Positions 51,923 through 55,621 of a DNA stretch of 64,000 nt are shown piece by piece; the first letter of the stretch is position 1, and each line of letters starts with the position of its first letter. This DNA is from Escherichia phage vB_EcoM_KAW3E185. Location: the sequence record MK373782.1, one strand, 5' to 3'. The position numbers and the translations under genes are program-made. Below the pieces are notes generated by a model, which saw only the letters and a list, made by a program, of their open reading frames with translations, did not search any database and was not told where the DNA came from.

Positions 51923-54900
51923 ATGGCTACATTAAAACAGATACAATTTAAAAGAAGCAAAGTGGCAGGAGTTAATCCTACTGCAGCACAATTAGCCGAA
52001 GGCGAATTAGCGATAAACTTAAAAGACCGAACTCTTTTTACTAAAGATGACCTCGGTAATATTATTAGCCTAGGCTTTGCTAAGGGCGGGGATATTAACG
52101 GTAATGTAACTCAAACTGGTGATTATTTACAAAACGGCGCGTATAATCTCAATGGAAATCAGTTTGTTTATGCAGGAAAATACATTGAATTTTTACCTAA
52201 AACCACTGGAAATGGCGCTTGGGCTAACCAACATTCGAATAAAGCCCCTATCTTTACAGATTTAAGTTCAACTACTTCTGTTTCAGAATACCATCCACTG
52301 ATTAAACAACGCTATAAAGATGGAACTTTTTCTGCCGGTACATTAGTAAACGAAGGTAGTTTTAAATTCCATTATATTGATGAAACCCGGACTTCAAAAT
52401 ACTGGACTTTTAATCGAAACGGTAATTTTCAAGTTGATTCCGGAAGTTTATTAGTATCTAATGGATATTTAGTTACTCAAAGTAATATTGAAACTAAAGC
52501 TGGTTCTTTAATTGGTCCTAAAGTTATTACCAAAAATATCAATGTGAGCACTAAATCTTGGGACACTAATATTGATACTGCATATGATTTAGTTTCATTA
52601 CCGACTTGGCAGTATACTCCAACCGAAACGGATTTGGATACTAATGGTATAAACTACCTTCGTAAATTCCGCGGACATGTTTCTTCTGCTATTTTCCATG
52701 AAGTTGCTGATGCTCGTTCAGGTAAACCACAGAATATTTCGTATTGGACGGGACGTAATGCCGAAGTTTATCAATGGTCTTATACCACAGATGGGCGTAT
52801 GTCTGTTGCTAATTCGATAGGTATAGGTCTTGCTGATGTTGGTGACCAAGGACGTTATCCATTGGTTTCGTTTGGTAAAGGTATTGCAATTGGTGACAAT
52901 GATACTGGTATTAAATGGGTTCGTGACGGCGTTATTGATTTGATTGCTAACGGGGTTTCGACCGGTACAATAAACAGTACTGGTATTAACAGCACTAAGA
53001 AATTGATGGTCGGTTATAGCCGCGATTCTGGTACTACTTGGGATTACCCAAATAACAACCAAGCAATGTTTACTGCGCGCACCGATGTTGATGGTAATAA
53101 TAACGGCGATGGACAGACTCATATCGGTTATAGCAGCAATGCCAAGATGTATCACTATTTCCGTGGTACAGGTCGTATGTCCGTTAGTATGGGCGATGGA
53201 CTTCTTGTTGAGCCCGGCATTTTAGATATTAAAACCGGTTCAAATTCGCTAAATTTGCGTGCTGATGGTACCATCGCTTCTGTTCAAACGTTAAAACTTA
53301 ATAACGGATTATATTTTAATGGTGATGGAACTAATGCTTCTCTAGTTTTTAAAGCAGCTTCAGGTATTGATGGCACTAAGCAAATAATGTGGGAAGGCGG
53401 TACTCGTGCAGGTCAGAACAAAAGTTATGTGACCGTGAAAGCATGGGGTAACTCATTTAATGCTACTGGTGATAAAGCTCGAGAAACCGTATTTGAGGTT
53501 TCTGATGGCCAAGGTTATTATTTCTATTCTCAACGCGTAGCTCCGACCGGTTCTGAAACTACAGGCCCTGTTGTAACCCAGTTCAATGGACAAGTTAATG
53601 CTAGAGGAAGTATTATTACTGACGGAAGTTTTAAAGTTAATGGATTAAGCACTTTAGTCGGTAATGTTACTATGTCTAATGGTTTGTTTGTCCAAGGTGG
53701 TTCTTCTATTACTGGACAGGTAAAAATTGGTGGAACGGCTGATGCATTAAGAATTTGGAATGCTGAATACGGTGCTATTTTCCGTCGTTCTGAAGATAAG
53801 CTTTATATTATTCCAACTCCAAAGAATGTTGGTGAATCAGGTGGTATTTCTAATTTACGTCCGTTCTATATTGCATTAAGTAACGGTAAAGTTTCTATGG
53901 ATCATGACGTAGATATAGGCGGCGGTAGATTTAAAGTAGAAGCGGCTGGAACTACGGCTGGTCAACGCATAACAGTAAATATGGCATCAGATGCTATTAG
54001 AATAAATGCCCCAACACAAGAATCTTCTAACTTCATCCAAGGACGTAAAGAAGATGTTCCGAAATGGTATTTAGGTATTGGCGATGGCGGCAACGTCGTT
54101 CGTATGCACAGTTACACCTACTCCCATGGTATTGCATTAAACTCTGATACGGTTGATATAGCTAAACCTCTTAGAATAGGTTCAACCCAGATTGGTACTG
54201 ATGGTAATATTACCGGTGGTTCTGGTAATTTTGCTAACTTGAATACAACAATAAATAACCTTAAGACAGATATTGTCTCAAGTTATCCTATTGGTGCTCC
54301 GATTCCTTGGCCTACTGATACACCTCCTGAAGGTTATGCCATAATGGAAGGTCAAACATTTGATGCTGACTTGTATCCTAAGTTAGCTGCAGTGTATCCT
54401 TCCGGCGCTCTGCCTGATATGCGTGGTCAAACTATCAAGGGTAAACCATCTGGGCGTGCTGTATTGAGTACAGAAGCAGACGGTGTTAAGTCACATAGCC
54501 ATAGTGCAAGTGCATCAAGCACAGATTTGGGTACTAAGACCACTTCTAGTTTTGATTACGGTAGCAAAACGACTTCAAGCTTTGATTATGGTACTAAGAC
54601 CAGTAATACCACCGGCAACCATAACCATACGGTAAGTGGAACTACCAGTTCAGCCGGTGCTCACCAACACGCGCGTTCAGGTCCTCAGGTCACTGCTGCA
54701 TGGGCAAACGATTTGTTTAGAGACGGGGTTACTACGATAGGTGCAAACTCATATGCTAAAATTAACTCAGGTATCACTGGTTCGACTTTAGCAACTAAGG
54801 TCGGTAAAACATCAAATGACGGTGCCCACACCCATAGTTGGTCAGGAACTACTAGCTCTACGGGTAACCATGCTCATACGGTAGGTATTGGTGCTCATAC

Positions 54901-55039
54901 CCATTCGGTAGGTATTGGTGCTCATTCTCATACTGTTGCAATTGGTTCCCATGGACATACAATAACTGTAAATGCCACAGGAAATACAGAAAACACAGTT
55001 AAAAACGTTGCTTTTAACTATATCGTTCGTTTAGCATAA
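51923..55039 (+). CDS. 37: Long tail fibre distal subunit gp37 (receptor-binding), T4-type
   Basis: 1038 aa; C-terminal His-box repeats (GNHNHT, GAHQHA, GAHTHS, GNHAHT, GAHSHT, GSHGHT) and T4-like C-terminus [11 protein letters not shown]. Confidence 0.95.
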
Positions 55040-55043
55040 GGAG

Positions 55044-55061
55044 AAGGGGCTTCGGTCCCTT
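55044..55061 (+). promoter_or_regulatory. Hairpin in the gene 38 translation initiation region (between SD and AUG)
   Basis: GGAG at 55040-55043, hairpin aaggggc-uucg-gucccuu, AUG at 55070; hairpin shortens the effective SD-AUG distance. Confidence 0.5.
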
Positions 55062-55069
55062 TTTATAAT

Positions 55070-55621
55070 ATGAAACTCTATCACTATTATTTTGACACTA
55101 AAGAATTTTACAAAGAAGAAAATTATAAACCATTAAAAGGCGTAGGATTTCCGGCTCATTCGACACCAAAAAAACCTTTAGACCCTAAAGAAGGCTATGC
55201 TGTTATATTTGACGAACGCGAGCAAGAATGGGTATATGTTGAAGACCATCGAGGAAAAACAGTATGGACTTATGATAAGCAAAAAATTGTTATTGACACT
55301 CCAGGTGCTCTTCAAAATGTTACTACAGAAGAACCTGGCGAATTTGACATTTGGACTGACGACGGGTGGAAGGAAGATGAAGCGTATAAGCGGGTAGTTC
55401 AACGTGATAAGAAAATTCATGAACTCTATAAATTATTCAGTGTTTTAAGTTCTCTTATTGATGCAGAGGTTGCTAATAGAGAAGAAAAACGAAAATTTAA
55501 AGAGCTCAAAAAATTCTTTGCCCTTTTAGAAAAACATGAACATCTTGGTGGCGAATTCCCTAAATTCCCTGACCTTGAAAGCAAATCACTTGTTAAACGA
55601 ATTATAAATATCTTTAAGTAA
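55070..55621 (+). CDS. 38: Tail fibre assembly chaperone gp38 (T4-type)
   Basis: 183 aa; MKLYHYYFDTKEFYKEENYKP… matches T4 gp38. Confidence 0.9.
   Translation: MKLYHYYFDTKEFYKEENYKPLKGVGFPAHSTPKKPLDPKEGYAVIFDEREQEWVYVEDHRGKTVWTYDKQKIVIDTPGALQNVTTEEPGEFDIWTDDGWKEDEAYKRVVQRDKKIHELYKLFSVLSSLIDAEVANREEKRKFKELKKFFALLEKHEHLGGEFPKFPDLESKSLVKRIINIFK

Follow-up and report, generated by a model that had tools for sequence, protein, structure and literature searches.

In T4-type gp37, the distal subunit of the long tail fibre, each chain runs from a knob through a thin stem to the tip and back again, and in the trimer the stem is six-stranded (PMC6957217; 2022 review). Along the core of the stem, the three chains bind iron through their HxH motifs, at seven sites in T4 (PMC6957217; 2022 review; PMC12609058). 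In T4 gp37, the knob is formed by residues 811–881 and 1010–1026, the stem by residues 882–931 and 960–1009, and the tip by residues 932–959; every residue that has been mapped to LPS or OmpC binding or to host range lies within 929–959 (Islam 2019, PMC6957217; 2022 review). The tips of the LTF and STF of the Felixounavirus Bas63 likewise consist of a collar, needle and head resembling those of T4 gp37, in which di-histidines vary in number, and it has been remarked that this number may scale with needle length; however, Bas63 belongs to a distant phage group, and the account of it contains no description of pairing between the repeats of the two limbs (PMC12609058).

We analysed a 64,000-nt stretch of Escherichia phage vB_EcoM_KAW3E185 (MK373782.1; the window), the first 20 kb of which is approximately 98% identical to T4-like coliphages. 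In the window, gene 37 is found at positions 51,923–55,039 on the plus strand and encodes a protein of 1038 aa (ORF list and translation), and the ORF is 95% identical at the nucleotide level over 3117 of 3117 nt to the annotated gp37 of SHSML-52-1 and FP43. When we compared the last 279 residues of the protein to the T4 gp37 fragment in PDB 2XGF using phmmer, we found a match with E=1.5e-89 in which query residues 2–161 and 213–279 align to T4 gp37 785–1026, a span that takes in the collar and both limbs of the stem. Pfam identifies a Collar domain (PF07484; E=1.6e-11, residues 791–838), which directly precedes the stem, and a gp37_trimer domain (PF20744). HxH motifs are arrayed on both limbs with a variable tip insert between them, which is the layout of a T4-type needle. 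Gene 38 follows at 55,070–55,621 on the plus strand and is predicted to encode a T4-type tail-fibre assembly chaperone of 183 aa (Pfam Caudo_TAP, PF02413) whose length and position are as in T4 gp38; the neighbouring ORFs have the order and sizes of T4 genes 34, 35, 36, 37, 38 and t. All of the features of a T4-type gp37 needle that we examined by sequence are present in this predicted protein. Because of the homology to 2XGF, the Pfam domains and the adjoining Caudo_TAP gp38, we assign KAW3E185 gp37 to the T4 type, in which the adhesin is predicted to be built into the C-terminus of gp37 itself. In T2/T6-type fibres, which are capped by gp38, the gp38 adhesin is approximately 260 aa and has glycine-rich motifs, and gp37 is without a His-box needle. 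We rejected this type for KAW3E185, where the needle is part of gp37 and gp38 is a Caudo_TAP protein of 183 aa.

The stem begins with His box 1 (H858-S-H860, within KS-HSH-S; 54,494–54,502, plus strand), which aligns to T4 H883/H885. His box 2 (H900/H902) and His box 3 (H914/H916), recognized by their spacing, are separated by a 14-residue step (54,620–54,670, plus strand), and the third box numbers as T4 H929/H931, which are iron ligands named in Islam 2019 (PMC6957217). The segment between His boxes 3 and 4 (54,671–54,826, plus strand; residues 917–968) includes the tip insert. On the returning limb, His box 4 (H969/H971) and His box 5 (H983/H985) are again separated by a 14-residue step (54,827–54,877, plus strand), and His boxes 5–8 make up a returning-limb array (54,869–54,958, plus strand) in which three 27-nt (9-residue) repeats of HxHxVGIGA (54,869–54,949) are followed by a final HGH (54,950–54,958). 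Tandem Repeats Finder reports this array with period 27 and 2.4 copies, a separate search recovers it as repeat family D2, and it is the sole period-27 repeat in the window. An earlier note on this DNA had listed a run of seven H-x-H boxes of the kind that coordinates metal ions in the gp37 needle. We found all seven, but His box 1, the HSH upstream of them, had been missed; the assignment to the metal-coordinating kind holds, as the needle binds its iron through HxH motifs (Islam 2019, PMC6957217).

The spacing between successive HxH motifs is 42, 14, 55, 14, 9, 9, 9 in KAW3E185 (eight HxH) as compared to 32, 14, 37, 14, 9, 9 in T4 (seven HxH). The two proteins are alike in the collar, the kinds of His box, the C-terminal 17 residues, the gp38 neighbour and the gene order. 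In contrast, KAW3E185 has one additional 10-residue unit on the outgoing limb and one additional 9-residue HxH unit on the returning limb, and its tip insert is unrelated to that of T4 and larger (His box 3 to His box 4 spacing of 55 rather than 37 residues), which places it in the size class of TuIb.

The additional outgoing unit is part of a short tandem repeat that lies approximately 340 nt 5′ of the returning array. Unit 1 is at 54,530–54,559 (plus strand; residues 870–879), unit 2 is at 54,560–54,589 (plus strand; residues 880–889), and a degenerate unit 3, the third copy of the repeat family, is at 54,590–54,619 (plus strand) and leads into His box 2. Units 1 and 2 are identical at 23 of 30 nucleotides and 9 of 10 amino acids, and the seven nucleotide differences between them comprise five synonymous third-position changes and ACT→AGC (Thr→Ser); unit 3 is identical to unit 1 at 19 of 30 nucleotides. 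The repeat boundaries are set by GTK/FDY and not by the His boxes, and a 12-nt sequence, GGTACTAAGACC, opens unit 1 and recurs immediately after unit 2. At a score of at least 30, Tandem Repeats Finder did not report the 30-nt repeat; it was recovered by the separate repeat search (three-copy family D1) and by direct counting of identities. This is the sole site in the window with a period-30 identity of at least 23/30, and no such site arose in 200 shuffles, which rules out chance similarity of units 1 and 2. The description of this segment as a tandem 30-nt duplication with synonymous divergence is thus borne out, with the start of the frame at 54,530 and not one base earlier at 54,529, and so is the statement that T4 gp37 has a single copy: in the phmmer alignment with 2XGF, unit 2 is matched by a clean 10-residue gap in T4. 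The 2XGF fragment, which contains the repeat, is loosely called the "receptor-binding tip".

To place the duplicated unit, we numbered it as in T4 (2XGF chain position + 784). It corresponds to T4 residues 895–904, approximately 30 residues before the tip; the earlier note had put the duplicated segment in the distal receptor-binding tip, whereas it maps to the knob-proximal stem (882–931). In 1996, Tetart et al. reportedly described duplications in the adhesin domain of gp37 that alter host range and have their endpoints in the His boxes. The 2022 review credits Tetart 1996 with tip mutations only (G938V and R954S/A955T). If the repeat in KAW3E185 were of the Tetart type, its copy number would remodel the receptor-binding tip and switch host range, a reading that draws on the loose name of the fragment in which the repeat lies, on the fact that relatives carry anywhere from 1 to at least 4 FDY units and on the consideration that a longer stem could in principle alter reach through surface polysaccharide. 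We think this very improbable: the unit stops well short of the mapped receptor residues at 929–959, the two-unit stem is found with many unrelated tips in varied hosts and families (lambda Stf, a P2-like phage, VR7 and TuIb), and in JQD51 identical units are combined with another tip cassette. We rejected a Tetart-type host-range duplication as such, as the unit at T4 895–904 lacks the tip residues (932–959), and also a Tetart-type recent event separating a variant from its parent, as the copies are 23% diverged and are common to many phages. The proposal that copy number in this segment is a classic route to host-range change is therefore not sustained; the two-unit form is common and lies outside the tip subdomain.

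To determine how widespread the two-unit form is, we searched phage records. The best seven full-length gp37 matches are gapless over 3117 of 3117 nt. The region 54,480–54,970 has a gapless match in 58 phage records, and 54,470–54,650, which spans both units, is gapless in 155 of 278 records. In contrast, just 35 records match the one-unit version of T4 gaplessly, and in 21 of these the identity is at least 99%. Two units are also present in TuIb (X55191), lambda Stf, VR7, NRG-P0074, JQD51 and a P2-like phage. By these counts, most sequenced T4-like phages have the two-unit stem, and T4 represents the short variant. The duplication had been singled out as noteworthy, but it is an ordinary state among close relatives, and the two-unit arrangement was already known in that it is present in the GenBank record of TuIb.

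In JQD51, both units are base-for-base identical to those of KAW3E185, and in NRG-P0074 there is one nucleotide difference in the 60 nt of both units. Because the units are identical in JQD51 and yet the two copies are 23% diverged from each other, while related phages differ by just 2–5% across the region, the sequences indicate that the duplication is old and inherited and that it long predates KAW3E185. The placement of GGTACTAAGACC on either side of the pair is the arrangement that replication slippage would use, and the identity of the pair in VR7 is consistent with recent duplication or gene conversion in the family, so one could propose that slippage between these flanking repeats produced a recent duplication private to the KAW3E185 lineage. 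However, 7 of 30 positions distinguish the copies, in a region where related phages are far more similar, the same diverged pair recurs in JQD51 and, with its single difference, in NRG-P0074, the region is gapless in more than 150 records, and a matching extra repeat is found 340 nt downstream. Slippage of this kind is extremely improbable, and a private recent duplication is ruled out by the shared, diverged copies. In VR7 the two units are 100% identical, and recent duplication or gene conversion does happen in the gp37 family.

We conclude that the duplicated unit is, very probably, a length polymorphism in the stem of the needle that is old and inherited and leaves the receptor-binding tip unchanged. 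To relate the two limbs of the stem to one another, we used a register in which the outgoing position is the residue number minus 882 and the returning position is 1009 minus the residue number. This register reproduces the published contacts G921–F970 (39 and 39) and G964–H929 (45 and 47), contacts that lie near the tip and not in the proximal stem (PMC6957217). On this register, T4 residues 895–904 would be level with the returning H989/H991 site. In the knob-proximal half of the stem, the HxH motifs are on the returning limb, in 9-residue repeats of V-G-I-G-A-H-x-H-T, and the 10-residue repeats of the outgoing limb are free of His. The metal ligands of the proximal stem would be supplied by the returning-limb 9-residue repeats, and the outgoing limb would pass each metal layer with one His-free 10-residue unit. 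Because each layer would be passed in this way, one added layer would need one outgoing unit and one returning unit.

For KAW3E185, we predict limbs of 60 and 59 residues as compared to 50 and 50 in T4, one extra metal layer (an eighth predicted HxH site where T4 has seven) and a stem that would be approximately 2–3 nm longer than that of T4, or roughly one layer, an estimate scaled from a needle dimension of approximately 150 Å. Receptor specificity would reside in the tip insert, and any effect of the extra layer would at most be indirect, by way of reach or stiffness. When we modelled residues 790–1038 as a monomer in AF2 with a 46-sequence alignment, the mean pLDDT was 52.9 and the pTM was 0.22, values as low as expected for a single chain of what is an obligate interwoven metal-binding trimer, with iron octahedrally coordinated at each HxH layer in the T4-type needle. 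Because confidence in the monomer model is poor, we infer the register and the extra metal site and do not observe them.

To look for the same pairing in other fibres, we described each stem by the spacing between successive HxH motifs and tabulated 196 distinct homologous stems. These were collected by a word-indexed protein search, by searching 50%-identity representatives exhaustively, and from IMG/VR loci and phage records. Automatic parsing left 52 proteins unparsed, and apparent exceptions were inspected by eye. Across the 196 stems, we found that the number of outgoing 10-residue units tracks the number of returning 9-residue VGIGAHxHx units. An H1-to-H2 spacing of 22 is found with one returning 9-residue step (1 stem), a spacing of 32 with two steps (91 stems), a spacing of 41 or 42 with three steps (93 stems), a spacing of 52 with four steps (6 stems, plus P0211 after manual parsing) and a spacing of 62 with five steps (1 stem). 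The other four stems are P0211, P0267, P0217 and L002. The first three were misparsed, through an internal HxH, a lost H2 or a 12-residue step, and all three obey the rule; P0234, with a spacing of 73 and six steps, also fits by eye. The sole natural exception is L002, a metagenomic contig (IMGVR_UViG_3300030021_000020) with two FDY units and two returning steps, which may mean that strict pairing is not essential for folding or that the contig is wrong. The pairing rule is thus obeyed by 195 of 196 distinct stems, which between them show five copy-number states and approximately 58 tip contexts. In T4, one FDY unit and one degenerate unit on the outgoing limb go with two returning 9-residue steps, and KAW3E185, with three outgoing units and three returning steps, has one more of each. 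The 14-residue steps of the two limbs also occur together in 194 of the 196 stems: neither limb has one in 98 stems, each limb has one in 95, and each limb has two in 1. The pairing of outgoing and returning repeats is an incremental point.

TuIb gp37 (X55191, a record of the Montag/Henning era) has the same spacing as KAW3E185, 42, 14, 55, 14, 9, 9, 9, with two FDY units, three returning 9-residue steps and a tip of the same size class; however, its tip sequence is different, and across the repeat region the two are approximately 79% identical at the DNA level. Lambda Stf has a homologous collar, stem and tip with two FDY units and eight HxH (42, 14, 48, 14, 9, 9, 9), and in the P2-like phage 4A7b, two units occur with three 9-residue steps. 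In contrast to KAW3E185 gp37, the lambdoid and P2-like fibres have unrelated N-terminal shafts and other tips, and some are without the paired 14-residue modules. Each copy-number state occurs with 24–26 different tip contexts, and the copy-number state changes at least 36 times when it is traced on a tree of the flanking sequences, the collar and the C-terminus. These 36 changes are not equivalent to 36 independent duplications; a double-crossover cassette exchange could move both extra repeats together.

Such co-inheritance could in itself account for the coupling, if the two repeats travelled as one recombination cassette with no structural constraint and stems with unmatched numbers would fold equally well. 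Between T4 and TuIb, the flanks are near-identical and the internal block that differs includes both extra repeats, and L002 is a natural sequence with unmatched numbers. However, the two arrays are separated by the tip, the most frequently exchanged segment, where a single crossover between parents of different lengths would uncouple them, and the rule nevertheless holds across nearly all of the distinct stems, their tip contexts and copy-number states; the limbs are also nearly equal in length in both T4 and KAW3E185. We therefore consider inheritance as a cassette with no constraint to be quite improbable, and a structural pairing of the limbs in a stem of variable length remains our preferred reading.

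A further step from an inherited stem-length polymorphism would be that the stem is a modular ruler whose length changes only by paired outgoing and returning units, with selection tuning reach or stiffness for each host. We regard this as rather unlikely, although somewhat less so than the alternatives above. If it were true, copy number would affect host range indirectly, through reach across LPS, O-antigen or capsule, and inserting repeats in matched pairs could be a means to set stem length by design. Among the roughly 200 stems, layer numbers run from 1 to at least 6, and a single stem breaks the pairing.

For KAW3E185 itself, the duplication is ordinary and of little consequence. Because the two-unit stem is the majority form and T4 is the short variant, comparison of a new gp37 with T4 alone is misleading and makes normal features look novel. 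The rule that relates the repeat numbers of the two limbs can aid in checking tail-fibre annotations and assemblies, and it can guide the design of chimeric or length-engineered fibres. Host-range prediction should focus on the tip insert and not on the 10-residue repeat. The tip insert comprises residues 917–962 by analogy with T4 numbering, is hypervariable among homologues and is the predicted receptor-binding head, which is likely to be the determinant of specificity; in KAW3E185, its DNA is 97–98% identical to that of several known phages.

In addition to the repeats that obey the pairing rule (the number of outgoing 10-residue units tracks the number of returning 9-residue HxH steps), the gp37 stem carries a 14-residue step on each limb; the outgoing step (54629-54661) joins His boxes 2 and 3 and the returning step (54836-54868) joins His boxes 4 and 5. 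These steps share the consensus S-x-S-G-T-x-x-S-A-G-x and are either both present or both missing in 194 of the 196 distinct stems compared. The 14-residue steps of the two limbs are a second paired module.

Homologues from the representative search include extreme stems. In P0157, we found four FDY units (the outgoing 10-residue repeats), five 9-residue steps and ten HxH motifs, and P0234 has approximately six 9-residue steps. In P0263, the proximal stem is minimal (spacing of 22 residues between the first two HxH motifs and one 9-residue step); despite this, each limb carries two 14-residue modules.

The pairing rule is broken by a single natural sequence, the gp37-like ORF of locus L002 (IMGVR_UViG_3300030021_000020), which ends at locus nt 2310. 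Its outgoing limb carries two FDY units, but its returning limb has just two 9-residue steps (HxH spacing 42,14,55,14,9,9). The DNA of this ORF is mosaic, with T4/TuIb-like sequence first and window-like sequence after it. Such a mismatch may be tolerated, or it may reflect a dead allele or an error in the assembly.

In phage VR7 (NC_014792), the two outgoing-limb 30-nt units of gp37 are 100% identical, as compared to 33-83% in other phages, and this identity indicates that a re-duplication or gene conversion took place recently within the family. In phage JQD51, identity to the window is 98.6% up to approximately 54608, immediately upstream of His box 2; past this position, JQD51 carries a different cassette with a shorter tip (spacing 37) that is unrelated to the tip in the window. 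The position of this switch is consistent with a putative cassette exchange at or near the His boxes.

The tip insert of the window gp37 (54671-54826) is 18 residues longer than that of T4 and unrelated to it in sequence; its size places it in a TuIb-like class (TuIb is a phage with the same gp37 architecture), and it is near-identical to the tip inserts of phages Mizar, Aplg8, SHSML-52-1 and ATK47/48. For receptor specificity, this insert is the segment to look at.

The short stretch that separates the stop codon of gp37 (55037-55039) from the start of gp38 (55070) also holds a stable C(UUCG)G-tetraloop hairpin (55041-55064; –15.1 kcal/mol, z = –4.0 relative to shuffled sequences), whose first bases are the GGAG shortly after the stop codon. 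The hairpin is similar to one that we take to be present in the initiation region of T4 gene 38.
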